Of a DNA stretch of 28,207 nt, positions 1 to 17,172 are shown one piece after another. Each line of letters begins with the position of its first letter. The first letter of the stretch is position 1. The translations under genes were made by a program, and so were the position numbers. This DNA is from Nitrospiraceae bacterium (GTDB lineage: Bacteria; Nitrospirota; Nitrospiria; Nitrospirales; Nitrospiraceae), in NCBI GenBank assembly GCA_039916745.1, contig JBDSKU010000477.1, positions 1-28,207 of the forward strand. The letters run 5' to 3'. The notes under the pieces were generated by a model. The model searched no databases, was not told where the DNA came from, and worked only from the letters and a program-made list of their open reading frames with translations.

Positions 1-693
1 ATAGTCGCATTTAATTTTTCTGACTTCTTCTCGAGAAAGTTCCTTCTTGTTTTTGGCTGCCTGCTCCAAACCTTTCCTGAACACCGCACGCTCGCCTCGG
101 TAGGTGGCCAACGAATAGTCCCATGGCAGGCATTCAAGGGCCCCATCCTCTTTCTCAACATCCTTCAAGTAGAGCATCACAATGACACAAGTCCCGGGGC
201 CTCCATCGGCGTGCCACAACTCGGAACCTGCCGGATCTCCTCTGCGATTTTCTGATTTGTAGAGCATGCCATAAAATATTTTGAAGTTGGCTTTGAATAT
301 CTCCTTTAAAAACGACTCCAGTGATCTCTTGAAGAGTTGTTCGATTTCCGGGAACGTCGTGTATATCTCCTTCAGGTATTGCCCTCGTTCGTTCCAAATT
401 TCAAGACCGGCCTGTTCTTCATCTTGAATTTTCCTGAAAATCGACTGCGCCAACTGTTGATTCTCTTGAGTCCAGAAAGAGGCAACATTCTTAGCCTGAA
501 AATCCTGCACGGCTTTTTGAACCTCAGGGCAACTCTTAGCTCGTTCCGTAAAACCTTGGCGACAATGGTCAAGATAGTTGGAATAGCGATACGCTTGCCT
601 CCAACCCAATCGTGAGCGATGTTTCTCAATGGACCGTAGACTCAGGTAATCCACCACCGTATCTTTCAATTTTCGAAAAATAGACACGCTCAT
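1..693 (-). CDS. 2OG-Fe(II) dioxygenase / PhyH-like protein (3' end outside window)
   Basis: Not in ORF track. Manual translation from ATG at 693 (SD GGGAG upstream) is open for 231 codons to base 1: MSVSIFRKLKDTVVDY...SELWHADGGPGTCVIVMLYLKDVEKEDGALECLPW... WHxD (205-216) followed by hydrophobic strand-YLxD...G-x-L-x-x-L-P is the PhyH/2OG-Fe(II) jelly-roll pattern. Confidence 0.8.
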   Translation of the reverse strand, partial: MSVSIFRKLKDTVVDYLSLRSIEKHRSRLGWRQAYRYSNYLDHCRQGFTERAKSCPEVQKAVQDFQAKNVASFWTQENQQLAQSIFRKIQDEEQAGLEIWNERGQYLKEIYTTFPEIEQLFKRSLESFLKEIFKANFKIFYGMLYKSENRRGDPAGSELWHADGGPGTCVIVMLYLKDVEKEDGALECLPWDYSLATYRGERAVFRKGLEQAAKNKKELSREEVRKIKCDY

Positions 694-950: not shown

Positions 951-2198
951 TTATGGCCATCCCTTTCCAATTGTGATGTACTCTGCACTGCGATCGTATT
1001 CGAGAGTATCTGTCGCTTCAAAACTGCCGGACAATCCAGGCGCTTGATGATCGCTTATTTCTCTTAGCTCATGCCTGGCGCTCCATCCGTTAAACTCCCA
1101 CTTTCCGACCTCAGTCTGTATCCAGAACTTTGGATTGCGATGCTGATCGAGCATAAACTGCAACGACTTTGGCGCAATGCCTAGCCACGCGCAAAACTGC
1201 CCATGATATTTGAGCGGCGCTTGTTCGTGCTTACGAATAAGGCGTAATCCCTTCTCGCGGCTAATCCTGCCGAATCGAATTTCTCGACTGACATGATCGG
1301 TGACTTTTGAATAACCATGTTTGTAGAGCTTTAGCTGATCATGCAAATCCATATAGTTAAAACAATCGACAAAATCATAGCAGTCAAAGGTGCGATTGAA
1401 GACAGAAGTCTTGTACCCATACTCGCGCATCATCTGCTCATGCTGCGCCTTGGGATCCCACCTTACGTAGTTACCCAAGTAGATGCCCTTCACTCCTACT
1501 GCGTTCAGGTCGCGATCGTCAGGATAGCGATACTGCCAGACGTCTTCTTCCTTGAGAGTATCGAAGATGGACAAGAGATCATCGGCCTCATGTCCCATCA
1601 AGTCATGATCCTTTCGGTAGCGACGGGTCATCTCGACCTCATGCTCATGGGAAAACATCCCAACCTGCTCAAGCCCCTGGTGAGCACCCCAGATAATTAA
1701 TGGGACCTTATATCGAACAGCCGTCTGAACCGGGAATACCGTTTGGCCCGCTAAAATAGGCCAGTACATACTGCCGAACTGCAGCAGAGTGCTCCGGGTA
1801 ATATTCTTTACCGAAACGGGATTGACGTTCTGACAAAGGATGTCGCAGTTGAATCGAATGCGAAGATTCGAAAGGTTGCGGATACCGAGCGGCGTATTGA
1901 AATATTTGTTATAGGTCACTAGCAATGGATTGAGACCCAACCGCTCCTTCACCATGTAAATGATGTAGTAAGAATCCTGTGCGCCGGTCACAGGAACGAT
2001 GCAATCGTAATTTCGGCCGTCAGTACTGCGATATGGTGCCACAAGCTGGGTCAACTTCTCCCACCGAGGTGCCCAATCGAGATTATCCTTTTCTTCATGA
2101 ATGAGGCATCCGGAGCAAAGGCCTTGATCATCCAGCATGAGTCCGAGCGGATGGTCCGTAGAATAAAAACAACGACGACAAACCTGTGGATTAGACAT
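951..2198 (-). CDS. N-acetyl sugar amidotransferase (WbpG/WbuX/PseA-like), degenerate PP-loop copy
   Basis: N-terminal CRRC...CSGC, YDCIVPVTGAQDS (PP-loop position), LLVTYN, WGAHQG, YLGNYVRWD, LKLYKHGYSKVTDHVSREIRFGRISRE; start overlaps hisF stop by 8 nt. Confidence 0.85.
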   Translation of the reverse strand: MSNPQVCRRCFYSTDHPLGLMLDDQGLCSGCLIHEEKDNLDWAPRWEKLTQLVAPYRSTDGRNYDCIVPVTGAQDSYYIIYMVKERLGLNPLLVTYNKYFNTPLGIRNLSNLRIRFNCDILCQNVNPVSVKNITRSTLLQFGSMYWPILAGQTVFPVQTAVRYKVPLIIWGAHQGLEQVGMFSHEHEVEMTRRYRKDHDLMGHEADDLLSIFDTLKEEDVWQYRYPDDRDLNAVGVKGIYLGNYVRWDPKAQHEQMMREYGYKTSVFNRTFDCYDFVDCFNYMDLHDQLKLYKHGYSKVTDHVSREIRFGRISREKGLRLIRKHEQAPLKYHGQFCAWLGIAPKSLQFMLDQHRNPKFWIQTEVGKWEFNGWSARHELREISDHQAPGLSGSFEATDTLEYDRSAEYITIGKGWP

Positions 2199-2979
2199 CA
2201 GTCGTGAGGGAATACATTGATTCGTAACTTGGAAGGCGCATTGGCATACCTATCAATTGCGTTTTGATCTTCTGAATGGCATGCTCCCTATAGCTCAGAA
2301 AGTTTCCCACAGCCACGGCAGCCATGCGCGGCTGCGAGAGGAGCTCAATCAGCTGACCAGGCTCACTCAGCCCGCCAAAAGCGATTAGAGGGATTTCAGC
2401 CGGAAGTGAAGCATGGGCACTCAACCTGCGGTCAAAGCCTCCGGGCTGCCCTTCATGCTGCCAATCAATGACGAGTAGTTCCGAGACTATGCCCAATGTG
2501 ACGGCATCCAGATCTTTAGCCGAAACTTGAGTTGAGACTTTTGTGCGGTAATCCAGCCATTCGATACGCTGATCGCGATAGGAAAGCGGCAACGAGGCAA
2601 TCACCGCCTGCGCCCCAAGTTGGCGTGACAACCCCCGCACAATTTCAACATCATCGTGCAGAAGGGCATCGACACAGAGGCGGTCCGCGCCTAACCTAAT
2701 CACTTGCAAACCATCCTCCACTGATCGGATTCCGCCACCATATATCAGCGGTGTTCCCAGACCCAATTGCCCCAGTCGCCCCAGGAGCTTGAAGTCGGGA
2801 CCTAGCCGGCCGGAGGATCGATCGATGCTCAGAACGAAGATTTCATCCGCGCCCCATCGGTCCAGGTTTTGGACCAGGCATTCTGGCTTTCCCAACGGCA
2901 AATAGCGCCGATAGCCAAACGACTGAACCGCCCAGCCATTTTTCACAATGACTGTTCCAATCAAACGTTTCTTAAGCAT
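2191..2979 (-). CDS. hisF: HisF-like cyclase paralog (glycan-locus HisF2/WbuZ type)
   Basis: MLKKRLIGTVIVKNG start, GADEIFVLSID, PLIYGGGIRS, PLIAFGG, AVAVGNFL TIM-barrel motifs; adjacent to HisH-like gene. Paralog, not the histidine-operon copy. Confidence 0.85.
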   Translation of the reverse strand: MLKKRLIGTVIVKNGWAVQSFGYRRYLPLGKPECLVQNLDRWGADEIFVLSIDRSSGRLGPDFKLLGRLGQLGLGTPLIYGGGIRSVEDGLQVIRLGADRLCVDALLHDDVEIVRGLSRQLGAQAVIASLPLSYRDQRIEWLDYRTKVSTQVSAKDLDAVTLGIVSELLVIDWQHEGQPGGFDRRLSAHASLPAEIPLIAFGGLSEPGQLIELLSQPRMAAVAVGNFLSYREHAIQKIKTQLIGMPMRLPSYESMYSLTTDV

Positions 2980-3583
2980 GACACAATCCTGAAATCAGAC
3001 TTTTCAACAGTTCCTTTCCTGGCCTCTGACTCTTTTCAGGATGAAACTGCAATCCCACGACACTACCCCGGCGAACAACAGAAGGAAAAGCCTTGTGATG
3101 CCTCGATAGACCAATCTGATATTCCGATGGCCCCCGGTAAGCAAAGGAGTGATTGAAATAAAACACTTGTCCATCACTAGCCTGGAACAACGGGTCCTGC
3201 AGGACACATTCGATAGAATTCCAACCGATATGCCATTGCGGGTTGATCAGCGGCACCACCTCGCCCGGGATCAATCCAAGCCCCGTCGTGTACTGATGCT
3301 CGTACGAAGCATCGGCAAGGAGTTGCATCCCCAGGCAGAAGCCGATGATTGGGCGCTGCAAGCGGGCTTGCTCCTGCAGATAACTAACCAAACTGAGGCT
3401 GTGAAGCGCTTTCATTCCACTTGGGAAGGCACCGACTCCCGGAAGCACCAGCACATCCGCTTCATTTAAGACGGCCTGATCGTTGCTGACACGCACACGA
3501 TAATTCAGTTCACGTAAACTATGAACCACAGAAGCGTGGTTGCCCATGTGATAATCCACAACGCAGACAGTCCTCGAACTCAC
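2972..3583 (-). CDS. hisH: Class I glutamine amidotransferase, HisH-like (HisH2/WbuY type)
   Basis: VVDYHMGN, LVLPGVGAF, GFCLGMQ (nucleophile Cys), YFNHSF, QFHPEKS (His-x-Glu). Start corrected from 3709 to GTG at 3583, which forms a GTGA overlap with the upstream stop. Confidence 0.9.
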   Translation of the reverse strand: MSSRTVCVVDYHMGNHASVVHSLRELNYRVRVSNDQAVLNEADVLVLPGVGAFPSGMKALHSLSLVSYLQEQARLQRPIIGFCLGMQLLADASYEHQYTTGLGLIPGEVVPLINPQWHIGWNSIECVLQDPLFQASDGQVFYFNHSFAYRGPSEYQIGLSRHHKAFPSVVRRGSVVGLQFHPEKSQRPGKELLKSLISGLCHA

Positions 3584-4710
3584 AAGCCGACCCCTACCTT
3601 GTATTTTCGATGAATGGAGCCATTCTCTTCTATGCGGAACAAGTCTTTGTTGACGGATGAATGCACCTGCTTCCAGAACTCGGTGACAGGAATGTCGATA
3701 TAGGCGCAAAAACTTCCGATATATTCGTCACTGCATGAGTCGTCGTAACGCTCGACAAGTTCGATTCCCCGCTCACGCGTCATGCGGCCCTGGCGAATTG
3801 CTTCATTGGCATAATCTGTCACCCGGCCAAAACCAAACTTGTAGTACTTGATCATTTGATTCAGTGTGACCCAGTCCTCATCCAGCGCGGTGACACCAAA
3901 AAGATCTCCTGTGTTCTCAACGGTATCCTCGCGGATTTGCAAGCCATTGGAAACGGAATACATTCCGTTGTTGACAAGAGACCAGTCTCCAAGAAACCAG
4001 CCTAGATACACGATCTGCAGGCCATGGGCGTCGAACTCCTCGGGCGAGGGATACCGATAGGGAATCAGATCTTCCGGAGGCAAACCGGCATCAATCATCC
4101 AGTCAGCTGCGGCACCAGACAGGGTATTCATGTAGCGCAGGTTGTTACCGTCGTAACCGGTACGCCCTAGCGTTTTCAGGTCACCCAACTGCAGGCCCGG
4201 GTTCTCGCCCCACAGGATCAGCGAAATGCCATACCGAATCGCCAGTTGGGGCACCGAGCTGAACAACGTCAACTCGGTAGATCTCGCCCAATTGGTAAAA
4301 CGGGCAAAGGATTCGCGCATGAGACGTTGCCATGTACCCGGCGCGGGTGCCGACAGCACGACATCGAACCCCAGCTCGATCAAATTCGAGATATTGTCCA
4401 CGCCACGCTGAGTGACTTGCTGTGGAGGGTAACTCAGACAAGCCAGCAATGGCCTGAGGCCGAGCTTATCCCTGACCCAAAGTGCTTGGCGCGTGCTGTC
4501 CTTTCCTCCGCTCACTCCGATAATACAATCGAAATACTGCCCAGATCTGCGGCGATATTGACGAAGAAGATCTTCCAGTATCTCGTAGCGTTCCTGCCAA
4601 TCAACGTATTGGAGCTGACGGAAATAATGACAGGCCGGGCAAATGCCTTCGTCGGTGAATTGCGCGTTGGGCCTAGTATCCGGCTGGATGCAGACCTTGC
4701 AGTACTTCAT
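3580..4710 (-). CDS. N-acetyl sugar amidotransferase (WbpG/WbuX/PseA-like), intact PP-loop
   Basis: MKYCKVC...CPAC, FDCIIGVSGGKDS (PP-loop, 4495-4512), WGENPG, YYKFGFGRVTD, IRQGRMTRE. ATG at 4710 preferred over GTG at 4731. Confidence 0.88.
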   Translation of the reverse strand: MKYCKVCIQPDTRPNAQFTDEGICPACHYFRQLQYVDWQERYEILEDLLRQYRRRSGQYFDCIIGVSGGKDSTRQALWVRDKLGLRPLLACLSYPPQQVTQRGVDNISNLIELGFDVVLSAPAPGTWQRLMRESFARFTNWARSTELTLFSSVPQLAIRYGISLILWGENPGLQLGDLKTLGRTGYDGNNLRYMNTLSGAAADWMIDAGLPPEDLIPYRYPSPEEFDAHGLQIVYLGWFLGDWSLVNNGMYSVSNGLQIREDTVENTGDLFGVTALDEDWVTLNQMIKYYKFGFGRVTDYANEAIRQGRMTRERGIELVERYDDSCSDEYIGSFCAYIDIPVTEFWKQVHSSVNKDLFRIEENGSIHRKYKVGVGL

Positions 4711-4720
4711 ACAGCACTCG

Positions 4721-5605
4721 TCACAAATCACGCAGATGCTGAATTCCCCGCTGCGGCAATGCGCAGCGGGGCGCCCAGGGTGGATTGGTTGAAATTACGC
4801 GTCGATTTGCGTGAAGAGCAACGACCATGGCAAATGATTGACAGCCGACGACCCAGTCGGCCCAGGCAATCGCCTCGGCGAGGGAACTAGACGTATCGAT
4901 GGTCAGATTGAGTTCGCCCGAACGACTTAGCCATGAAGCGTATTTCCCGGAAGGATCTGACGGGTGGGAACGCAAGCGAACTTCAGGGGTGTGGCCCAAA
5001 CCCAGGGCGCCAACTCGCTCCAAGAAAAAGTCGAGGGCTTGAAATTCTCCCGGCTCTTCATTGTTCCCCCAAGGCTGCCGAATAGGCTCCAGCACATACA
5101 AGATATGGCTGCCTGGTCTTTCGTTTGGTTCGGACGACAGCGCATTAATCTGAGCAACCAATCCCTCCAAATAGCGATTGGGCAACAACACTACCGGCAG
5201 ATTAGGGAAACACCGCACTGCTTCAGTTTGGGCATCTTCATCCGCAACAAAAAGCTCATCGGGCAGGACCTCCTCCCCATTGCGAATAAAACGCTCACGG
5301 TAATTGACCCAATGATCGACCACTCCAATACTGAAAATGCCTAGCGCTCCAGCCATACGACGTGCCTCATGCTCCAAGTCACTTGCCCAGCCCGTGCCAC
5401 TCAGCAACATGGCCGCACCATCAAGTGCGTCGGACAACGATTCATTTTTCCAATTTGGGAAGGTGGCAGACCACAACGCCATGGCCGGGCCCTGCAGACA
5501 GGTTCGGACCGTTAGGTTGGGCTGATTCTTAAGCCATCCGAGGATAAGATTAGTGGCGCCTGCATCATGGGCAACAACTGCGAGAGGAGAAGACAGGCTA
5601 GTCAT
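4721..5605 (-). CDS. Hypothetical GT-B-like protein, candidate nonulosonate transferase
   Basis: 294 aa from ATG 5605 (8-nt overlap with GNAT stop). Motifs VVAHDAGA, VVDHWVNY, LPDELFVAD, LYVLEP, VRLRSHPS, ADWVVGCQSFAMVVA resemble a two-Rossmann GT-B fold with an HP motif; function inferred. Confidence 0.55.
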   Translation of the reverse strand: MTSLSSPLAVVAHDAGATNLILGWLKNQPNLTVRTCLQGPAMALWSATFPNWKNESLSDALDGAAMLLSGTGWASDLEHEARRMAGALGIFSIGVVDHWVNYRERFIRNGEEVLPDELFVADEDAQTEAVRCFPNLPVVLLPNRYLEGLVAQINALSSEPNERPGSHILYVLEPIRQPWGNNEEPGEFQALDFFLERVGALGLGHTPEVRLRSHPSDPSGKYASWLSRSGELNLTIDTSSSLAEAIAWADWVVGCQSFAMVVALHANRRVISTNPPWAPRCALPQRGIQHLRDL

Positions 5606-6140
5606 CTCTGAACTTTGCAAAGTAGAGAATGTCCTGAGCTTCCCCCTCAATAATTTCCTGTCGTACCCTCACTGCCTCAAGATGCATCCCTGAGCGTTCC
5701 ATAATCTTGATCATGCCCACATTACACCTGACCGTTCCTCCAGTAACTTTCCGGAGTCCCCTCTTTTCGAACAGAAATGACATCAGGGTCATCCACGCAT
5801 CGAGGCCTAGACCTCGTCCCCAATACGCTTGATCGCCAAGCAGAACCCCCAAGTCAGCAGTACCATGGGTCGGCGAAACATACGCCGTAATTGTGCCAAC
5901 AACTTTCCCGCCGCCTCGCACACGGACCGCAAGAAACATGTTCTCCGTCCCGTCAAAGGAGCGCAGGTATTTCAGGCAGGTGTTCGAATCATGCTGATGT
6001 AAGCGTTGGTTGCTGAAACGCACAACCTCAGGATCGCGCAACCAGCCAAGATGCTCCTCGGTAATGTCCGACTCAGCAAAAGGAGTGAGTATCGTCCGCG
6101 CCCCCGTCAGCTCGCAAAAATTGTTGGTCACTACGGTCAT
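5598..6140 (-). CDS. GNAT N-acetyltransferase (RimJ/RimL-like, PseH-like fold)
   Basis: WLRDPEVVRF, ADLGVLLGDQAYWGRGLG (acetyl-CoA binding R/QxxGxG), LRKV, N...ERSG. Confidence 0.85.
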   Translation of the reverse strand: MTVVTNNFCELTGARTILTPFAESDITEEHLGWLRDPEVVRFSNQRLHQHDSNTCLKYLRSFDGTENMFLAVRVRGGGKVVGTITAYVSPTHGTADLGVLLGDQAYWGRGLGLDAWMTLMSFLFEKRGLRKVTGGTVRCNVGMIKIMERSGMHLEAVRVRQEIIEGEAQDILYFAKFRDD

Positions 6141-6152
6141 CCTGCCTATGGG

Positions 6153-7448
6153 CTATTTATCCACCAGACTACTCATCCGATCCCATACCTTATGAAACGC
6201 CGTGACAATACGATCAATGTCCTCGCTGGAAAAATCATACACACACATCCCAATGCTGAGATAGCTATTGTCCTGAAGTTTCTCGGCGACCGGACAAATG
6301 CCTTTGCGATAATCAACATCGCGCTTGCAGATCTCAGATGTCCAGGGGAATCCCTTGGTGCCGTAGGCCATCTTTTGCTGGTACATTGGCAAGAGATGAA
6401 GATTCTGATAACTCTTCCCAATCGGAACACCCTCTGCCTGCAACGCCTCATAGATGCGACCGCGAGTGACCTGCAGTAACTCCTCATCCAGCACCAGGGG
6501 ATAGATATAGTAGGCATGGGTGCATCCTGGCTTGATCACCGGGGGGCGAAGCCCAACCAGGCCATGCAGACCGGAGGTAAGGCGCTCGGCCGCATGCTGG
6601 CGGGTGCCCACGAACCCCTTCAGCTTTTTTAGTTGTTCGATGCCAATCGCGCACTCAATTTCACCAAGACGAAAATTATATCCGATCATATTGCTAAGGT
6701 TGGTCACGCCCTTGTCGCCCACCACAGCTTCCGCATGGTTTCTGATCAATTGCAGGCGCTCGGCAATCTCGTCGTCATTGGTCACAAGGATTCCACCTTC
6801 GCCGGTATGGATATGCTTGTGGAAGTTCAGACTGTACCCGCCGACATCCGAAAGAGTTCCGGCATATTTACCCTTGACCATCGCGCCTGGCGCCTGCGCG
6901 GCATCGGTAATGACCTTGAGCCCATGCTTGCGGGCGATGGCCATCAGGACATCCGTATTGGCTGAGTGGCCGAAGATATCGACCGCCATGATGGCCTTGG
7001 TATAGGGCGAGATGGCGGATTCGACTGCAACGGGATCAAGACAAAATGTTTCAGACTCTATGTCGGCAAAGACCGGAATGGCATTCCAGTGCAGAATGGC
7101 CGTCGCGCTGGCGCACATCGTCCAGGGGCTTACGATCACTTCGTCGCCCGGCTCGATACCTATGGCGCCAACGGCGGCGATCAACCCCGAAGTCCAGGAA
7201 TTAACAGTGACTACATGCTTGACGCCGAAATACGCCTCACAGGCCCGTTCGAATTCCTGCACCTTTGGACCGCCGTAGAAGTCCGGGGTCCAGCAACCAA
7301 GGTATTGAGACAAGACACCACTCTCCACCACCTGTTTGGCAGCCGCTACTTCTTCTGGACCAATCGAATTGTAGCGCTTGAACGGGCGCTCTATAGTTTT
7401 GGGCCCGCCAAACAGTGCCAGCGGTTCGTCGATCGGGCTGTTGCTCAT
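6153..7448 (-). CDS. DegT/DnrJ/EryC1/StrS PLP-dependent sugar aminotransferase
   Basis: VNSWTSGL, GIEPGDEVIV, PVFADI, DAAQAPGA, YSLNFHKHIHTGEGG (PLP lysine), GYNFRL, CPVAE. Confidence 0.92.
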   Translation of the reverse strand: MSNSPIDEPLALFGGPKTIERPFKRYNSIGPEEVAAAKQVVESGVLSQYLGCWTPDFYGGPKVQEFERACEAYFGVKHVVTVNSWTSGLIAAVGAIGIEPGDEVIVSPWTMCASATAILHWNAIPVFADIESETFCLDPVAVESAISPYTKAIMAVDIFGHSANTDVLMAIARKHGLKVITDAAQAPGAMVKGKYAGTLSDVGGYSLNFHKHIHTGEGGILVTNDDEIAERLQLIRNHAEAVVGDKGVTNLSNMIGYNFRLGEIECAIGIEQLKKLKGFVGTRQHAAERLTSGLHGLVGLRPPVIKPGCTHAYYIYPLVLDEELLQVTRGRIYEALQAEGVPIGKSYQNLHLLPMYQQKMAYGTKGFPWTSEICKRDVDYRKGICPVAEKLQDNSYLSIGMCVYDFSSEDIDRIVTAFHKVWDRMSSLVDK

Positions 7449-7516
7449 GAGAGAACCTTTACATTGATATCACGACCCAAGGTGCCGGATGCACCCGATA
7501 GCAGTTCAGCGGACAA
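7445..7516 (-). pseudogene. Possible remnant of an internally deleted NAD-dependent epimerase/SDR gene (23-aa mini-ORF)
   Basis: TTG-start mini-ORF MSAELLSGASGTLGRDINVKVLS* fills the 57-bp gap; contains a GxxGxxG Rossmann motif and ends in an ATGA overlap with the aminotransferase start. Confidence 0.3.
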
Positions 7517-8507
7517 GGCCGGACTTCTCTTTGATTCGTTCGCAAATCTCTTGCGCCGCGAGCGCTGACCGACCCGTACTTGCCAACTCGGCCCCACTGC
7601 CTAATGCCTCGTGAATGTTACTAACAGCGCCGAGCATGGCTAAGAGGTAGCCCCCTGCATGCCGCTCGCCTACGTCGAGGGTTCGATATCCCAGAAAATG
7701 CGGACTCTCATTCGTGCGGCGTACCCGCCATGCCAACCCCCCTTCCTCCATGGTCAGCACCCCCCGCTCCGTAACAATCTGCAACTCGAATAAAGCGAAG
7801 TCGCTTGCATGGCCACAAACCAGGTGAATTGGTATGGTCTCGACCCCGGAGAGAATTGCAGGAACTGACGGATCATCGGGCAGGCCATCCCATACCGGAG
7901 TCCCTGTTGCCACGACACTCACAGGACCTAGCAGATGATGGAGCAAGTCGATCATGTGGGATCCGTTATTGAGAACCCCCTTATTGTACAGACCCACGAC
8001 TGTGCGAACTGACCCCCAAACACCGCTGGCCAGTTCGCGGCGAATACGCGTGATCTCCGGATCCCAACGACGCGTGTGGTTTATCACCAGGGGTACGCCG
8101 GCCGCTTCGCAGGACTGAACCAGCTCGGCCGTCGTTGCAGCACTTGGCGTGACGGGCTTTTCGCAAAAGATCACGCGAGGCTCCAGGCGAAGCGCAGCAA
8201 GAACATCGCTGGCGTGACAGTCCGTCGGCGAACAGATACTGACCACATCGAAACGGGAACCGGACTCGACCAGAGCATCCATTGAGGAATGGCCACTAGC
8301 GATGCCCCAATGGCGCATGAACTCCCTACGACGAGTCTCGTCGGGATCTACACAGGCCGACAACCGATACCGCCCATGACGTCTGAATGCACCTGCGTGG
8401 GTGCATGGTGCGGCATCTGGTGCACGAGCAGCATCAAAGCCGCCGGCAATATTGCCGCAGCCAACGATCAGAACAGCAAGCGCATCAGAACGCGTAGCAA
8501 TCGGCAT
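7506..8507 (-). CDS. Gfo/Idh/MocA family NAD-dependent oxidoreductase
   Basis: VLIVGCGNIA, DVVSICSPTDCH, IFCEKP, NHTRRW, NGSHMIDL. Confidence 0.9.
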   Translation of the reverse strand: MPIATRSDALAVLIVGCGNIAGGFDAARAPDAAPCTHAGAFRRHGRYRLSACVDPDETRRREFMRHWGIASGHSSMDALVESGSRFDVVSICSPTDCHASDVLAALRLEPRVIFCEKPVTPSAATTAELVQSCEAAGVPLVINHTRRWDPEITRIRRELASGVWGSVRTVVGLYNKGVLNNGSHMIDLLHHLLGPVSVVATGTPVWDGLPDDPSVPAILSGVETIPIHLVCGHASDFALFELQIVTERGVLTMEEGGLAWRVRRTNESPHFLGYRTLDVGERHAGGYLLAMLGAVSNIHEALGSGAELASTGRSALAAQEICERIKEKSGLVR

Positions 8508-8543: not shown

Positions 8544-9605
8544 TCACACTAACAACTCCCACCCAAGCGCCGTTCCTCGCTGCACATCCTTGCTGACCCG
8601 TCTCCCCAGCACGTGCTCAAGATATTTCGGCGCCAACCCCAGCCCCGGTCGAATAGCGCGCACATTCTCATCAGTCAACAGATCCCCTGCTTTAATGTCC
8701 CGAACCACGTAGAGTGATCGCCGGAACTGGATCGACTGCTTCTCCGCTTCCAAGGGACCGTAACTCACCTGCCCCAGCGCCTGCCAGGCACTTGTGGTTT
8801 CGATCACGAGTTGCGCCATTTCAGCTGGTTCCATGGAGAAGGTGCTGTCGACGCCACCATCGGCACGGTTGAGGGTGAAATGCTTTTCAATCACGGTGGC
8901 GCCCAGTGCGACACCGGCCACCGCAACGCCGACCCCCATGGTGTGATCGGACAGTCCCACTTCACAGTCGAAGAGTTCGCGCAGGTGCGGGATGGTCAGA
9001 AGGTTCGTATTCTCGGGCGTAGCCGGGTAGGTGCTGGTACACTTGAGCAGGACCAGATCCTTGCAGCCAGCCTCACGTGCGGCGCAAACAGTTTCGTCCA
9101 ACTCGGCTATAGTGGCCATGCCGGTAGAGATGATCAGCGGCTTGCCGGTAGCAGCGACCCGGCGAATCAGCGGCAGGTCGGTATTCTCGAAGGATGCGAT
9201 CTTGTAGCACGGCACATCCAGGCTTTCGAGAAAATCTACCGCCGTGTCATCGAAGGGCGTGCTGAATGGAATCATGCCCAATCCTCGTGCCCGGTCGAAG
9301 ATGGGCTTGTGCCACTCCCACGGAGTATGGGCTTTGCTATAGAGCTCGTAGAGCGACGTGCCCGCCCACAGGCTCTTGGGATCGCTGATGTGAAACTCCT
9401 GCTCGTCCAGATCGATCGTCATCGTATCTGGCGTATAGGTCTGGATTTTCAGCGCATGGGCACCAGCCCTGGCAGCAGCCTCGACGATTTCAAGCGCCCG
9501 CTCAAGCGATTGATTATGATTGCCGGACATTTCGGCGATGATAAAAGGCGTAGAGGCGCAACCGACAAGGCGACCGGCAATCCTTACGTGAGAGCGCTTA
9601 TTCAT
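8544..9605 (-). CDS. pseI: Pseudaminic acid synthase
   Basis: PFIIAEMSGNHNQS, KIQTYTPDT, AHTPWEWH, FSTPFD, YKIASFE, LLKCTSTYP, GLSDHT, IEKHFTL, C-terminal SAF domain (RRSLYVVRDIKAGD...RPGLG). Start corrected to ATG 9605 (GGGGAG SD, 8-nt overlap). Confidence 0.93.
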   Translation of the reverse strand: MNKRSHVRIAGRLVGCASTPFIIAEMSGNHNQSLERALEIVEAAARAGAHALKIQTYTPDTMTIDLDEQEFHISDPKSLWAGTSLYELYSKAHTPWEWHKPIFDRARGLGMIPFSTPFDDTAVDFLESLDVPCYKIASFENTDLPLIRRVAATGKPLIISTGMATIAELDETVCAAREAGCKDLVLLKCTSTYPATPENTNLLTIPHLRELFDCEVGLSDHTMGVGVAVAGVALGATVIEKHFTLNRADGGVDSTFSMEPAEMAQLVIETTSAWQALGQVSYGPLEAEKQSIQFRRSLYVVRDIKAGDLLTDENVRAIRPGLGLAPKYLEHVLGRRVSKDVQRGTALGWELLV

Positions 9606-10245
9606 TCTCCCCTTTTTCAATCGTGAGCAGATACCGCTTGCCGCGATAGTCAAAGAACGCTGGATACCTCGTATTATCTACAACTCGCAGCAAATCAAAT
9701 TGCTCTGCCAGCGTTTTATTGGGATCGAGTCGGCTGTCTTTTGATGTTCTTTTCGGCATATACGGTCCAGGATCACCGCACTGTGCCGTCGGCGTGATCG
9801 CCCCAAACTGCTCCACAGCCTGTGTCATCAGCGATAGTTCGGCGGCAAAGAGCTTTTCATTGATTTCAGGAAGAAGCTCATGGCCTTCAAGGAAGAACTC
9901 TGTCTTAATCCAAATTGCACCACTATCGACAGGATCATTTGCCTCCAGGAGACAAAGAGTGATCTGATTCGCTCCGCTCAGGATTGCCCAAACATATGGA
10001 GACCACCCCCTGCCCTTCGGCAAATCGCTGGCATGCAGGACGAGCGTAGCCCTATATTTGGTTCGTTCTGCGCCTCGAATGATCTGGCTGCAAGAAACAA
10101 GAAAGAGAATATCTCCACCCTGTAACCCCGCTTTGTCATAACACAGTACGGCGGTATGCCCCCTGAAAGACATCTCGGCAATCCAGCCCCCAAGACTCTT
10201 GACTACAGGATGACTGGGATCGGTGCAGAGTACGGAAATTTCCAT
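9598..10245 (-). CDS. Formyltransferase-family protein (putative sugar N-formyltransferase, PseJ-like role)
   Basis: LFLVSC, LVLHASDLPKGRGWSP (variant of HxSLLPxxRG), LLEANDPVDSGAI (DxG), C-terminal YMPKRT...FDLLRVVDNTRYPAFF. Start corrected to ATG 10245. Confidence 0.8.
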   Translation of the reverse strand: MEISVLCTDPSHPVVKSLGGWIAEMSFRGHTAVLCYDKAGLQGGDILFLVSCSQIIRGAERTKYRATLVLHASDLPKGRGWSPYVWAILSGANQITLCLLEANDPVDSGAIWIKTEFFLEGHELLPEINEKLFAAELSLMTQAVEQFGAITPTAQCGDPGPYMPKRTSKDSRLDPNKTLAEQFDLLRVVDNTRYPAFFDYRGKRYLLTIEKGENE

Positions 10246-10246
10246 A

Positions 10247-11323
10247 TCAATAGCCCAATGCTTGACAGAGCCTAGCACTACCCAGCCCATCAACGAGCGC
10301 ATAGGATTTTTCGGACAATGCCGCTAAACGACTTTGGTCATTCATCAAATCAAGAATTGCCCTGCGCATCAATGGCGCACTGGCTATCTCTAGCTTGCCG
10401 AGATAGATATTCGCACCCAACAGATCCAGTGTTCTCGCGATGTCAATTTGGTTGTCAGCCAGCGCAACAATCAATGCGGGCAGACCCACACAACACCGCT
10501 CCCAACTAGCAGCCCCCCCTGCCCCGATCGCCAAGTCGGCAGCCGCCATTAACTCAGCCATCCGAGCAGTTTGAACATGGCACGTAAAGCGGTGCTGAGC
10601 GCTTTCAGACTCAATCTGCTCACGACAAGGATGCTGCGCACCGATCACGACGTCCACATGCAAGTCGTAACCGCCGATATGAGCTAGTGCCTCGACGGCC
10701 CGAGCTGTGCAATTGCCAGCATCCACGCCGCCGAAAAACACCAGCACACGCGTGACCGGCCCTGTACGCGGCGTGACCTGCTCACGCAATTGACGGAACT
10801 TCTCGCGCAGCAACGCGTGGCGTGGGCCTAATAATAGCCTGCAATGCGCGGGCACTTTGCCGGTGTAACGGGTGTCCATGTCCGCATAGAGATTCTGATC
10901 CAACAGGACATCGCAGTCGTGCTGACGATTCGCGATGTCATCGATGGCCAGAATATTCTTGGCCGTTTGCCGAAGTGCGGACTCCCAACGAGCATCCAAG
11001 GCATAGTGGTCGACAACCAGCCAGTCCCAGGTTTGATCGGACAGCGCCTGGACGGTGGCTTGCGCATCAACGTGCTGGCTGGTGCCAAGCCAGTGGGACT
11101 GAGCCAGATCGCCTGAGATCGCCTCGCTTGAGCTGCTATTGAGCGGCATGAACTCATGCTCCTTTGCCGCCAGCATGTCCCTTAAATGCCCTGGCAGGTG
11201 ACGACTGAGAACGCGGATCTGTGTGCCGCGTTGTTTCAGTGCGTCCGCTAAGGTCAGGCAACGCATGAAATGACCGGTGCCGATTTGACGTGAGGCATCG
11301 ACGCGAAAGACGACTCTTCTCAT
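10247..11323 (-). CDS. pseG: UDP-2,4-diacylamido-2,4,6-trideoxy-beta-L-altropyranose hydrolase
   Basis: VFRVDASRQIGTGHFMRCLTLA, LVVDHYALD, AIDDIA, LLGPRHALLR, VFFGGVD, ADLAIGAGGAASWERCCVGLP, ADNQ. Confidence 0.92.
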   Translation of the reverse strand: MRRVVFRVDASRQIGTGHFMRCLTLADALKQRGTQIRVLSRHLPGHLRDMLAAKEHEFMPLNSSSSEAISGDLAQSHWLGTSQHVDAQATVQALSDQTWDWLVVDHYALDARWESALRQTAKNILAIDDIANRQHDCDVLLDQNLYADMDTRYTGKVPAHCRLLLGPRHALLREKFRQLREQVTPRTGPVTRVLVFFGGVDAGNCTARAVEALAHIGGYDLHVDVVIGAQHPCREQIESESAQHRFTCHVQTARMAELMAAADLAIGAGGAASWERCCVGLPALIVALADNQIDIARTLDLLGANIYLGKLEIASAPLMRRAILDLMNDQSRLAALSEKSYALVDGLGSARLCQALGY

Positions 11324-11359: not shown

Positions 11360-12058
11360 TCAGTCATCCTGGATCTGAGAAATGGCCTTCATCATCAACT
11401 CGGCTCGTCGCCAATCTGCCTCGGTGTCGATATCCTGTACCCGCCAGCGTGGAATGATGACCGGGAAAGAATGCCGATCGAAAATTCGTTTGCGCTCTAT
11501 CCAGGCAGTAGGCCGTCCCCAGTAGAACTGCCCGGCATCGTGCAGCGCCATAGGAAGATCCTGCGAACGGGTGGAGAACTGATCCGGAAAGAACATTTCA
11601 AGCCCGCCGTCAGGGTGGAGATGGAAAGAACGGAAAATGGGCGCAGCAAACTCTGTGACTGTAAACGCATAAGCCCAGGGACCAGACTGCAGCGCCACAA
11701 GACCACGGTTGAGATCCTCAACGCGCACAAAGGGTGCAGTGGCATAGAGACAGCAGACGGCTTCGACCGGCCACTGTTGGTCAAGCATCCATTGGGTGGC
11801 ATGAGCGATCACGTCAGTCGTGCCTGCGAAGTCATTGGATAACTCCACTGGCCGCAGGAAAGGCACCTCGGCTCCAAAGGCTTTGGCCACTTCGGCGATT
11901 TCGCAATCGTCCGTAGAGACAAGGATGCGATCGAACAAATTGCTCTCGCAAGCTGCTGCAATGGAATGAGCAATCATGGGTTTTCCTGCAAAGGGCTTGA
12001 TATTCTTGCGCGGAATGCGCTTGGATCCACCACGAGCGGGGATGACGGCTATTTTCAT
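11360..12058 (-). CDS. pseF: Pseudaminic acid cytidylyltransferase
   Basis: IAVIPARGGSKRIPRKNIK, VSTDD, PFLRP, CCLYATAPF, RSQDL, HDAGQFYWG, QDIDTEADW. Confidence 0.93.
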   Translation of the reverse strand: MKIAVIPARGGSKRIPRKNIKPFAGKPMIAHSIAAACESNLFDRILVSTDDCEIAEVAKAFGAEVPFLRPVELSNDFAGTTDVIAHATQWMLDQQWPVEAVCCLYATAPFVRVEDLNRGLVALQSGPWAYAFTVTEFAAPIFRSFHLHPDGGLEMFFPDQFSTRSQDLPMALHDAGQFYWGRPTAWIERKRIFDRHSFPVIIPRWRVQDIDTEADWRRAELMMKAISQIQDD

Positions 12059-13218
12059 GCTCTCGTCGCCAGTCGCAAAGCAGCCACAACCAGGTCCTGT
12101 TGCGCTTCCGTCAGCCCCGGGTACATCGGCAAACTAATCGCCTCCGCATAATAGTTTTCGGCCTGCGGAAAATCGCTCAAATTGAACCCTAAGCGCGCAT
12201 AGTAGGGCTGCCGATATACCGGGATGTAATGCAGGTTCACGCCGATACCGCTGGCCCGCATATATTCAAACACCTCTCGCTGGCTACCCTTCATACTATC
12301 CAGCCGCAAACGGACAACGTATAGATGTAAGGCAGAGTAACTTTCCGCATGTTGCCACGGTGTAGTGACGGGCAGACCTTTTAGCCACTTGTCATAACAC
12401 GCTGCCAGAACATGTCGCTTGCCGACATACTCATCTATACGTTGCATTTGGCTCAGTCCCAGCGCTGCCTGAAAATCTGTCATCCTGTAATTGAAACCTA
12501 ATTCGAGCTGCTGGTAGTACCAGGGGCCGTCGGAAGCGTGGGTCATCTCAGCTGCATCCCGAGTGATGCCATGGCTGCGCAGATGCACCATGCGCTTGGC
12601 CAGTTCAGAATCATTGGTGAGCGCCATACCACCCTCACCGGTCGTGATGATCTTGACCGGATGAAAACTGAACACTGTGACATCGCTGTAGCGACCGTTG
12701 CCAATGGGCTCACCCCGGTACCTGCCCCCAATGGCATGTGAAGCATCCTCAATGATCTTGAAACCATAGCGTTGACTCAATGCATGGATGCCGGCCATAT
12801 CGCACGATTGACCACACAAGTGTACCGGGATCACCACTTTAGGCAAGCAACCTGACTTCTCCGCTTGCGTCAACTTCTCCGCCAATCTTTCTACGCTTAG
12901 GTTGTACGTGAGCGGATCGATATCCACAAAATCAACCCGCGCACCACAATAGCGTGCACAGTTAGCACTGGCCACAAAGGTGATGGGGCTGGTCCATACC
13001 CAATCACTTGCCCCCACGCCCAGCGCAAGGCAGGCAATATGCAATGCACTAGTAGCACTGTTAACCGCTACCGCATACTGCGCGCCGCAGTAACCAGCAA
13101 TAGCTTTTTCAAACGCTGGTACGGCAGGGCCTTGAGTAAGGAAGTCCGAACGCAACACATCCACTACCGCCTGGATGTCGGCTTCGGAAATGTCTTGGCG
13201 TCCGTAGGGGATCATCAT
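12055..13218 (-). CDS. pseC: UDP-4-amino-4,6-dideoxy-N-acetyl-beta-L-altrosamine transaminase
   Basis: IPYGRQDI, LTQGPAV, NSATSALH, EDASHAIG, FSFHPVKIITTGEGG, LRSHGITR, LGFNYRMTD; ATGA overlap with pseF. Confidence 0.93.
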   Translation of the reverse strand: MMIPYGRQDISEADIQAVVDVLRSDFLTQGPAVPAFEKAIAGYCGAQYAVAVNSATSALHIACLALGVGASDWVWTSPITFVASANCARYCGARVDFVDIDPLTYNLSVERLAEKLTQAEKSGCLPKVVIPVHLCGQSCDMAGIHALSQRYGFKIIEDASHAIGGRYRGEPIGNGRYSDVTVFSFHPVKIITTGEGGMALTNDSELAKRMVHLRSHGITRDAAEMTHASDGPWYYQQLELGFNYRMTDFQAALGLSQMQRIDEYVGKRHVLAACYDKWLKGLPVTTPWQHAESYSALHLYVVRLRLDSMKGSQREVFEYMRASGIGVNLHYIPVYRQPYYARLGFNLSDFPQAENYYAEAISLPMYPGLTEAQQDLVVAALRLATRA

Positions 13219-13220
13219 CT

Positions 13221-14219
13221 TCAGAACTTACCGAGCTTGTCGCGGTTCTGAGCAATCCAAGTCCGCAAAGTCTCGATGCTCATCCAGTCGGTGTTGTTAT
13301 CCGAGCAGTAGATAAAGTCCGGCGCGACCTTTTTCCCGCCGTTGATACGCTCGGGATCTTCGCTCCATTTATAAATCGCAGGAAGAATCTTATAGTGATC
13401 CTTGTATTCGTACGTATACAGCGCGTCCTCAGAGCCGATCATCTGCTCGTGGAGCTTTTCGCCGGGCCGGACTCCGACAATGTCTTGGCGTACATCGGAC
13501 GCAACTGCACGGGCAATATCGGTCACCTTCATCGAAGGGATCTTCTTCACATAGATCTCCCCGCCGACCATGTCCTCAAGCGCATGCCAGACGAGATCCA
13601 CCCCCTGCTCAAGCGTAATCATGAAACGAGTCATGCGCTCATCCGTAATTGGCAGTACCCCTTTGTCGGCGATGGAAAGAAAAAACGGGATTACTGAGCC
13701 CCGCGAACCCATCACATTGCCGTAACGAACCACTCCAAAACGGGAGTCGTGGTGGCCGGCGTAAGAGTTGCCTGCAACGAATAGCTTATCGGAGGTCAGT
13801 TTTGTTGCACCGTAAAGATTGGCCGGGCTACTCGCTTTATCGGTCGAAAGTGCGACGACTCGCTTTACCTTTCGATCGATGCACGCATCGATCAGATTCA
13901 TCGCACCCAGCACATTGGTCTTCACGCACTCAAATGGGTTGTACTCGGCCGTAGGCACAATCTTGGTAGCTGCGGCATGAACCACGTAATCAATGCCGTC
14001 GAGAGCACGCAAGAGACGCTCTTTATCGCGCACATCACCGATGAAAAACCGCACCCGTTCGTCGGCACTGAACAGTTTGGCCATCTCCCACTGCTTCATC
14101 TCATCGCGCGAGAATATGACAAGCCTGCGAGGATTATATTTGGCCAACGTCATGGGCACAAAAGTGTGCCCAAAGGAGCCGGTACCACCTGTCACTAAAA
14201 TTGACTTGTCATTCAGCAT
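13221..14219 (-). CDS. pseB: UDP-N-acetylglucosamine 4,6-dehydratase (inverting)
   Basis: TGGTGSFG, FSRDEMKQ, GDVRD, HAAATKIVP, AEYNPFECVKTN, STDKA, YGATK, RYGNVMGSRGSVIPFF, RPGEKLHE. Confidence 0.95.
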   Translation of the reverse strand: MLNDKSILVTGGTGSFGHTFVPMTLAKYNPRRLVIFSRDEMKQWEMAKLFSADERVRFFIGDVRDKERLLRALDGIDYVVHAAATKIVPTAEYNPFECVKTNVLGAMNLIDACIDRKVKRVVALSTDKASSPANLYGATKLTSDKLFVAGNSYAGHHDSRFGVVRYGNVMGSRGSVIPFFLSIADKGVLPITDERMTRFMITLEQGVDLVWHALEDMVGGEIYVKKIPSMKVTDIARAVASDVRQDIVGVRPGEKLHEQMIGSEDALYTYEYKDHYKILPAIYKWSEDPERINGGKKVAPDFIYCSDNNTDWMSIETLRTWIAQNRDKLGKF

Positions 14220-16659: not shown

Positions 16660-17172
16660 CTAGGCCGGCACCACATCGTTCACATCGATCTCTACTGCTG
16701 CGGCTTGCTGAATGAGGCGAACACCCAGTACCAATCGATGGTGTTTTTCTTTGCGCAAGAGAATCCCGCGAACCCCTTGCAACGGACCTCGAATTACTTC
16801 CACTTGCATACCTTCCTGCAGATACGGATGCGAGTCGTAGGGCAACACACTGGTCATCAGGGTCCTGAGTGCGGCAATTTCTTCATCCGCAATCGGCTCC
16901 GGGCAATGGCTGGCCCCGACAATATCGACCACACCGATCGTCTTCAACACCGGCAGCTTTTGCTCCGATGCAAAACGGACGAAGCAATAGCCTGAAAAGA
17001 GCGGGACTTCAATTTCCCTCTTCCGATCCTTCCATTGACTGAGACGCTTGACCGTCGGCAATAGCGGCTCGATGCCCTGAGTCGCAAGCTGGTCGCGCAC
17101 GATCTTTTCATGACGTGACTTCGTTCGCAATGCATACCAACGTGAACCGTTTGTCTGGTTGGTCTGGTTCAT
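16660..17172 (-). CDS. UpxY/LoaP-type NusG-paralog transcription antiterminator
   Basis: NGN domain WYALRTKSRHEKIV...PLFSGYCFVRF; KOW motif GMQVEVIRGPLQGVRG; sits at the head of a polysaccharide operon. Confidence 0.92.
   Translation of the reverse strand: MNQTNQTNGSRWYALRTKSRHEKIVRDQLATQGIEPLLPTVKRLSQWKDRKREIEVPLFSGYCFVRFASEQKLPVLKTIGVVDIVGASHCPEPIADEEIAALRTLMTSVLPYDSHPYLQEGMQVEVIRGPLQGVRGILLRKEKHHRLVLGVRLIQQAAAVEIDVNDVVPA

Follow-up and report, generated by a model that had tools for sequence, protein, structure and literature searches.

Nonulosonic acids decorate lipopolysaccharide (LPS), capsules and flagella, where they shape how cells interact with phages, the immune system and surfaces. 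Their diversity is usually ascribed to the acyl groups at N5 and N7 and to epimers. Chemistry at C8 is known from a few described systems. In Shewanella oneidensis, the dehydrogenase KdnB and the DegT aminotransferase KdnA act on a 3-deoxy-2-ulosonic acid ahead of its incorporation and replace one of its hydroxyls by an amine, giving Kdo8N (8-amino-Kdo). EpaA and EpaB carry out enzymatic oxidoreduction at C8 of pseudaminic acid (Pse) (PMC12053666). Lastly, 8-amino-3,5,7,8,9-pentadeoxynonulosonic acid occurs in the O-antigen of Flexibacter (Tenacibaculum) maritimus (PMC3210612); a paper on the O-antigen of T. maritimum names aminotransferase, oxidoreductase and acetyltransferase genes without detail, and does not define the biosynthetic genes (PMC9796276).

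Here, we analyse a stretch of 28,207 nt from a Nitrospiraceae bacterium (contig JBDSKU010000477.1), referred to below as the window, in which a cassette at 4721-8507 encodes a Gfo/Idh/MocA oxidoreductase, a DegT aminotransferase, a GNAT protein and a GT-B-fold protein. An earlier note on this DNA had placed the first three as a triad right after pseI, and that is where they lie, on the minus strand. In its best-supported reading, which we hold with moderate confidence, the cassette serves nonulosonate tailoring, turning one hydroxyl of the sugar into an acylated amino group.

A recurrent cassette in nonulosonate loci

A scan of one genome per species, covering about 185,000 genomes, returned relatives of the window aminotransferase in 248; the best 80 loci, together with those of Sulfuricella and Limnospira and the window itself (n = 83), were analysed by tblastn with the window proteins and by clustering of all open reading frames (ORFs). 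Homologues of the aminotransferase number in the thousands, the top 120 being 74-98% identical and coming from Beta- and Gammaproteobacteria and cyanobacteria. Among the best 80 of the 248, the orthologues are 67-97% identical and span at least eight phyla (those listed are Pseudomonadota, Cyanobacteria, Chlorobiota, Nitrospirota, Verrucomicrobiota, Gemmatimonadota, Bacteroidota, Spirochaetota and Desulfobacterota). The oxidoreductase gene lies directly upstream of the aminotransferase gene in 76 of the 83 loci, and the GT-B gene is found within 5 kb of it in 73, either after the GNAT gene or directly before the oxidoreductase gene. The same gene order is shared by about 80 loci across many phyla and is not a product of chance. 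Its conserved core consists of the oxidoreductase, aminotransferase and GT-B genes, the GNAT gene being the variable member; the earlier note, which took the triad for the unit, had its three genes right and overlooked two things, namely that other genes can take the place of the GNAT and that the core includes the GT-B gene.

The cassette is linked to nonulosonate genes. A NeuB-family synthase, whose co-occurrence had been proposed as a check on the triad, is encoded within 10 kb in 67 of the 83 loci, and in 48 of the 57 in which both flanks reach at least 8 kb. Pse-type loci, with PseB, PseC, PseG and PseI, are the majority, and in cyanobacterial loci the cassette sits within the pse operon, directly after pseF. 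A second, KdsB-like cytidylyltransferase (CT2) is encoded within about 4 kb of the aminotransferase gene in 25 loci, mostly directly upstream of the oxidoreductase gene or of the GT-B and oxidoreductase genes. Where the oxidoreductase is of the window type (at least 44% identity), PseF is always present and CT2 never; with the type of about 30% identity, CT2 is present in 23 of 43 loci.

An exhaustive search for distant relatives of the aminotransferase, followed by Pfam scans, uncovered a continuum at 39-60% identity, with several members longer than the query. Among relatives of 39-47% identity there are natural fusions of three kinds, namely GFO-DegT (P0271, P0340), DegT-GNAT (P0251) and DegT-CTP_transf_3 (P0288). 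The longer contigs that bear fusions show polysaccharide genes, and the P0288 loci hold PseB-like, PseC-like, Capsule_synth, GNAT, Gfo/Idh/MocA and NeuB genes. We argue from these fusions that oxidation, amination and N-acylation would be consecutive steps, on a molecule that is handled by a cytidine monophosphate (CMP)-ulosonate synthetase.

The same search yielded double-DegT fusions of 777-878 aa (P0268, P0301, P0338 and P0371), in which a relative of the cassette aminotransferase is joined to a second DegT domain. Several loci have a make-up of their own. In L004, a metagenome-assembled genome of Sulfuritalea (the closest relative of the window, 97% identical), the flanking PseB, PseC and PseF and the cassette are 89-97% identical to those of the window, and the middle (L004:3195-7398) is exchanged for another PseG-like gene (27%), another NeuB-family synthase (34%), a PseH-clustering gene and an SGNH/AlgX-like protein, which looks like recombinational swapping inside the locus. 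Loci of type B (L046:2955-4982, L010, L025, L037, L038 and others) encode a 679-aa fusion of a cytidylyltransferase and a class III (GSA-like) aminotransferase beside an aldo-keto reductase; this set often replaces PseF and recalls the architecture of EpaA (cytidylyltransferase plus aldo-keto reductase). In Methylobacter loci, including L024:12842-13681, flagellin genes lie just downstream, so that the cassette is within a flagellin-glycosylation island, and in the Limnospira locus (L002:6289-7338) a PhyH-family oxygenase is encoded next to the NeuB fragment.

The gene row and the enzymes of the cassette

The 30 large ORFs of the window were scanned against Pfam and NCBIfam families. Every large gene lies on the minus strand, and the scans describe one operon-like row:

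13221-14219, minus strand: PseB, the sole 4,6-dehydratase in the window
12055-13218, minus strand: PseC, by family scan
11360-12058, minus strand: PseF (TIGR03584, 310.8 bits), the sole cytidylyltransferase or other nucleotidyltransferase in the window
10247-11323, minus strand: PseG, by family scan
9598-10302, minus strand: formyltransferase-like protein of 234 aa in the pseH slot; the match covers just the C-terminal half of Formyl_trans_N
8544-9653, minus strand: PseI, pseudaminic acid synthase (TIGR03586, 509.8 bits; cut-off 340)
7506-8507, minus strand: Gfo/Idh/MocA oxidoreductase of 333 aa (PF01408, E = 4.6e-16; PF02894)
6153-7448, minus strand: DegT_DnrJ_EryC1 aminotransferase of 431 aa (PF01041, E = 1.6e-90, 304 bits)
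5598-6140, minus strand: GNAT of 180 aa (Acetyltransf_3, E = 6.4e-17)
4721-5605, minus strand: GT-B-fold protein of 294 aa from the likely ATG at 5605, by predicted structure
3580-4731, minus strand: WbuX (TIGR03573; the two WbuX of the window score 275.6 and 295.2 bits)
2972-3709, minus strand: HisH-like protein (TIGR01855)
2191-2979, minus strand: WbuZ/HisF-like protein (TIGR03572)
951-2198, minus strand: second WbuX (TIGR03573)
1-693, minus strand: ORF running off the window end, with no family match in the scans

PseI makes the presumed substrate of the cassette. Its gene is separated from that of the oxidoreductase by 36 nt, and gaps of 57 and 12 nt follow between oxidoreductase and aminotransferase and between aminotransferase and GNAT, the ATG of the GT-B gene (5605) overlapping the GNAT end by 8 nt. 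As the earlier note had stated, the 30 ORFs lack any 4,6-dehydratase besides PseB, any nucleotidyltransferase besides PseF and any UDP-sugar dehydrogenase. The surroundings are of LPS/polysaccharide type, with GT9 heptosyltransferases and an UpxY/RfaH-type antiterminator at 16660-17172.

By its sequence, the oxidoreductase is a member of the Gfo/Idh/MocA family with both Pfam domains and intact catalytic motifs; G16-x-G18 (of the Rossmann GxGxxG), E116-K117-P118 and NNGSH184 are invariant in seven diverse members drawn from type A, type B and fused proteins. Among curated families it scores best with IolG, inositol 2-dehydrogenase (E = 1e-19, far under the cut-off of that model), and the solved proteins closest to it are inositol dehydrogenases and YjhC, with the alignment confined to the NAD domain.

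The aminotransferase, judged likewise from its residues, is a DegT/DnrJ/EryC1/StrS pyridoxal phosphate (PLP) enzyme with an intact catalytic lysine and not the dehydratase histidine: Lys211, the Schiff-base residue, aligns with the lysine of PseC, with D182 and the TGEGG motif likewise conserved. It scores under the cut-offs of the PseC and LegC models. Its structural model (predicted local distance difference test, pLDDT, 95.8) finds its best solved match in Fic25 (8gyh-8gyj; E = 2.5e-53, about 31% identity), with a template modelling (TM) score of 0.86-0.88 over the full length. RbmB and BtrR reach a TM of 0.82, against 0.74-0.78 and less coverage for the nucleotide-sugar enzymes ArnB, perosamine synthase and WbpE. 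KdnA (5k8b), which aminates 3-deoxy-D-manno-oct-2-ulosonic acid (Kdo) at C8, is clearly homologous as well (E = 2.4e-45, about 28% identity, TM 0.78), though others are nearer. In the Fic25 crystal, an N-acetylated free acid is bound as a PLP adduct. These structural comparisons incline us to expect a substrate without a nucleotide moiety.

Oxidoreductase, aminotransferase and acetyltransferase, in the same order and followed by a WbpG-type amidotransferase set, also make up the WbpB/WbpE/WbpD route. A branch of that kind would start from UDP-GlcNAc(A) and yield a separate UDP-2,3-diacetamido-2,3-dideoxy hexose or uronate, with WbuX/HisH/HisF amidinating its 3-acetamido group in the manner of WbpG in Pseudomonas aeruginosa O5. 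Three UDP-sugar dehydrogenase homologues are encoded elsewhere in the genome, all on other contigs, and the oxidoreductase scores a weak 45.8 bits with an archaeal UDP-GlcNAc 3-dehydrogenase model whose cut-off is 450. However, WbpB (3oa2) ranks 32nd among the matches of the oxidoreductase and aligns over just 65 residues (E = 4.9e-4, 22.3 bits), and WbpE (E = 3e-37, TM 0.74) ranks behind Fic25, perosamine synthase, RbmB and KdnA. The acetyltransferase here is a GNAT, whereas WbpD is a left-handed beta-helix enzyme, and neither the UDP-GlcNAc 6-dehydrogenase WbpA nor the 2-epimerase WbpI is found among the window ORFs. Such a branch would also leave the linkage to NeuB and cytidylyltransferases and the DegT-cytidylyltransferase fusion unexplained, and we consider it highly improbable. 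As to orthology with the WbpB/WbpE pair, it is ruled out by the ranks, the 65-residue WbpB match and the TM of WbpE; the comparison that the earlier note had called for finds a likeness no greater than that of the superfamily.

The inositol 2-dehydrogenase match also brings into view a pair that would aminate a non-sugar or cyclitol-like molecule (an inosose or hydroxy-acid, for example) to provide a substituent or aglycone of the nonulosonate and not a backbone nitrogen. The best solved relatives of the aminotransferase include Fic25, with its amino-acid-derived substrate, and the 2-deoxy-scyllo-inosose aminotransferases RbmB and BtrR, and varied N-acyl groups are known on nonulosonates. Against this stand the absence of any ligase, ATP-grasp enzyme, inositol-phosphate synthase or phosphatase accompanying the cassette, the presence in about 90% of loci of a capping acyltransferase, which is a poor fit to a linkage amine, and the DegT-CTP_transf_3 fusion, which points to an ulosonic acid. 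On balance, we hold this alternative to be rather unlikely.

The GT-B-fold protein has no Pfam or NCBIfam match. Its AlphaFold model (pLDDT 92) shows a clear GT-B fold (Z 12-15) with neighbours that are effectively tied, namely NeuC (Z 15.2), 2-epimerases (Z 15), polysialyltransferase 5wc6 (Z 14.1) and PseG (Z 12.5), together with MurG (Z 12-15); fold searches do not separate a transferase from an epimerase or a hydrolase. H214-P215 is invariant, a His-Pro pair that we take to be typical of CMP-sugar transferases. Feature matches in a protein atlas (glycerophosphotransferase, polysialyltransferase and a Leptospira O-antigen family) are leads only. Judging from the modelled fold, the protein may either transfer the modified sugar or process a nucleotide sugar.

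In another reading the pair would act before condensation, on a hexose-stage Pse intermediate, for example at C3 of UDP-2,4-diacetamido-2,4,6-trideoxy-altrose, and the GT-B protein would in that case be a PseG-like hydrolase of the modified UDP-sugar. The best fold neighbours do include the hydrolysing NeuC and PseG, DegT enzymes classically take nucleotide-linked keto sugars, and in cyanobacterial loci the cassette stands between pseF and pseG. Pathway chemistry, however, speaks for the nine-carbon stage: the hexose C3 becomes C6 of the nonulosonate, which bears the pyranose ring oxygen, and amination there would block ring formation. Moreover, most loci keep PseG alongside the GT-B gene, the full-length architecture of the aminotransferase is common to enzymes with non-nucleotide substrates, and both the cytidylyltransferase fusion and the adjacency to cytidylyltransferase genes point to the later stage. 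Action on the hexose is, in our judgement, improbable.

The GNAT gives no match to TIGR03585 (PseH) at E <= 0.001, the cut-off of that model being 93.1 bits, and is 25% identical to a real PseH over 84 aa. That it should serve as the PseH of this strain, the add-on being reduced to the oxidoreductase-aminotransferase pair, would agree with the lack of any TIGR03585 match above cut-off in the genome, which is 84% complete, and with the formyltransferase-like gene in the pseH slot. Yet orthologous GNATs occur together with genuine PseH (103-163 bits) in L014, L015 and L044 and with a PseG-PseH fusion in L026 and L032, and L004 has the same GNAT plus its PseH-clustering gene. In addition, a DegT-GNAT fusion exists, and the formyltransferase-like protein could itself perform the N7-acylation. 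We therefore consider such a role for the GNAT to be quite unlikely. Its identity with PseH, which the earlier note had named as grounds for giving up its idea, is ruled out, since true PseH genes sit beside the cassette GNAT in other loci.

The formyltransferase-like gene in the pseH slot suggests a 7-N-formyl sugar. As in the window, a PseG of about 360 aa is paired with a formyltransferase-like protein of about 217 aa in some 14 other loci, and PseG-GNAT-formyltransferase fusions of about 720 aa occur elsewhere (Sulfuricella L001, L013).

In GNAT-less loci, a FemAB/Acetyltransf_6 protein (12 loci) or a protein of about 290 aa from cluster c28 (6 loci) follows the aminotransferase. The FemAB/Acetyltransf_6 proteins, of about 320 aa, take the GNAT position in L023:10367-11329, L008, L016, L018, L020, L022, L028, L036 and L048, and could place an aminoacyl instead of an acetyl group on the new amine. 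An acyltransferase-like gene (GNAT, FemAB-like or c28) follows the aminotransferase gene in 62 of the 78 evaluable loci by ORF clustering, and in about 71 (some 90%) once tblastn GNAT matches are added. This near-constancy agrees with a new amine that is never left uncapped, its acyl group being variable.

The WbuX/HisH/HisF set consists of acetamido-to-acetamidino enzymes, whose N-acetyl targets probably include the group added by the GNAT. A window-type GNAT (at least 40% identity) is encoded in 14 of 16 loci with the order WbuX-HisH-HisF-WbuX, compared with 15 of 66 others (Fisher p = 2.7e-6, ignoring shared ancestry). This association supports one amidotransferase acting on the new acetamido group, as had been supposed for the downstream amidotransferases. 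In the window two WbuX paralogues flank a single HisH/HisF pair, the same four-gene set being present in 16 loci, which suggests two acetamidino groups per sugar.

The proposed pathway and the candidate sites of amination

In the tailoring pathway that we propose, a pseudaminic-acid-type sugar would be built by PseB, PseC, PseG and PseI together with the formyltransferase-like protein (or a PseH that has escaped detection). The Gfo/Idh/MocA enzyme would then use NAD(P)+ to oxidise one remaining secondary hydroxyl to a ketone, which the 431-aa DegT enzyme would transaminate to an amine; acetylation of this amine by the GNAT would give a 5,7,X-triamino nonulosonate. PseF would activate the modified sugar with CMP, the GT-B protein probably uses the resulting CMP-sugar, and one of the two WbuX proteins probably turns the new acetamido group into an acetamidino group. 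The earlier note had likewise proposed that the triad oxidises, aminates and acetylates a hydroxyl of Pse. The linkage and the fusions back that proposal; as to the substrate, the carbon (C8 or C4), free or CMP-linked sugar, the order relative to CMP activation and the GT-B role, we infer them.

In a 9-deoxy 5,7-diamino sugar the sole free hydroxyls are at C4 and C8, which makes these the candidate sites. We favour C8, on the free and not the nucleotide-linked sugar. In this regard, the 8-amino nonulosonate that the earlier note mentioned from a marine Bacteroidetes O-antigen is a verified structure and a sugar of just this kind (PMC3210612), and oxidoreduction at C8 of Pse is on record too (PMC12053666). 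A 4-keto group, next to C3 and the anomeric centre, would in turn be prone to elimination.

Several observations weigh against the proposed tailoring role. One highly conserved aminotransferase is paired with oxidoreductases of two subfamilies, which are about 50% and about 30% identical to the window oxidoreductase. All identities to characterised enzymes are near 30%, which makes the inference of a substrate from homologues weak. Of the 57 fully flanked loci, 9 have no synthase gene within 10 kb; among genomes lacking one close by, five were tested and all five carry NeuB elsewhere, a weak point as NeuB-family matches also occur in 9 of 14 control genomes. In about 13 loci the synthase is only some 33% identical to PseI, and in L012 it falls below both the NeuB and PseI cut-offs, so that the cassette would need to accept different backbones. 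The GT-B protein is encoded in LPS-type loci and next to flagellin genes, a poor fit to a simple acceptor-specific transferase. Finally, our literature search found no biochemistry for any carrier of the cassette and no published glycan structure for the cultured ones.

We put forward more tentatively, with less than even confidence, that the cassette might be the missing route to 5,7,8-triamino nonulosonates (8-amino-8-deoxy sugars of Pse or legionaminic acid, Leg, type), with N8 diversified by interchangeable acylating genes. If so, the variants at N8 would be acetyl (GNAT), aminoacyl (FemAB-like) and acetamidino (second WbuX), and a structure known since 2003 without an assigned route would gain its pathway. 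Triamino nonulosonates would then be widespread in uncultured freshwater, groundwater and cyanobacterial lineages and not the oddity of one fish pathogen, and the aminotransferase of about 430 aa (248 of about 185,000 species genomes) would be a genomic marker predicting such sugars. The enzymes could also serve in making aminated sialic-acid analogues. Several cultured organisms are among the carriers (Sulfuricella denitrificans skB26, Azospira oryzae DSM 21223, Propionivibrio dicarboxylicus DSM 5885, Chlorobium ferrooxidans DSM 13031 and Limnospira fusiformis), which makes the proposal directly testable.

Comparison with known systems

KdnB/KdnA follow the same logic as the cassette and differ from it in several respects. 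KdnB is an iron-dependent alcohol dehydrogenase that acts on a primary alcohol, whereas the partner in the cassette is a Gfo/Idh/MocA enzyme, only secondary hydroxyls are free and the sugar has nine carbons compared with eight. The cassette further adds an acyltransferase and a GT-B protein, and KdnA is not the closest relative of its aminotransferase. The WbpB/WbpE/WbpD (WlbA/C/B) system with WbpG is alike in having a Gfo/Idh/MocA enzyme, a DegT enzyme and an N-acetyltransferase in series, with a WbpG/WbuX-type set nearby. It differs in that the oxidoreductase here is not WbpB-like, the acetyltransferase is a GNAT, WbpA and WbpI are missing and the linkage is to NeuB and cytidylyltransferases, not to UDP-uronate genes.

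The aminotransferase shares its full-length architecture of about 430 aa, including N- and C-terminal extensions, with Fic25 (Streptomyces ficellus), RbmB and BtrR, whose substrates, by the titles of their PDB entries, are not nucleotide-linked. In contrast, these enzymes are only about 31% identical to it, belong to antibiotic pathways with unrelated genomic contexts and act on other substrates. EpaA/EpaB (and Ela/Aci) of Acinetobacter baumannii are oxidoreductases that work on C8 of finished Pse/Leg and have a dedicated CTP_transf_3 cytidylyltransferase domain coupled to them (PMC12053666), and type B cassette loci likewise carry a second cytidylyltransferase. EpaA/EpaB are, however, short-chain dehydrogenases and aldo-keto reductases that epimerise, with no aminotransferase and no nitrogen added.

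The SugarBase preprint reports no triamino nonulosonate species, and our literature search found no description of the cassette, or of a Gfo/Idh/MocA-aminotransferase pair linked to nonulosonates. The 5,7,8-triamino-3,5,7,8,9-pentadeoxynonulosonic acid of Tenacibaculum maritimum corresponds to the predicted product type, being Pse/Leg-like with nitrogen at C8 (PMC3210612), although its 8-amine is in amide linkage with hydroxyglutarate and not acetyl. The chemistry of a dehydrogenase acting with an aminotransferase is already known, and its use on nonulosonates, with a GT-B partner and swappable acyltransferases, would be new.

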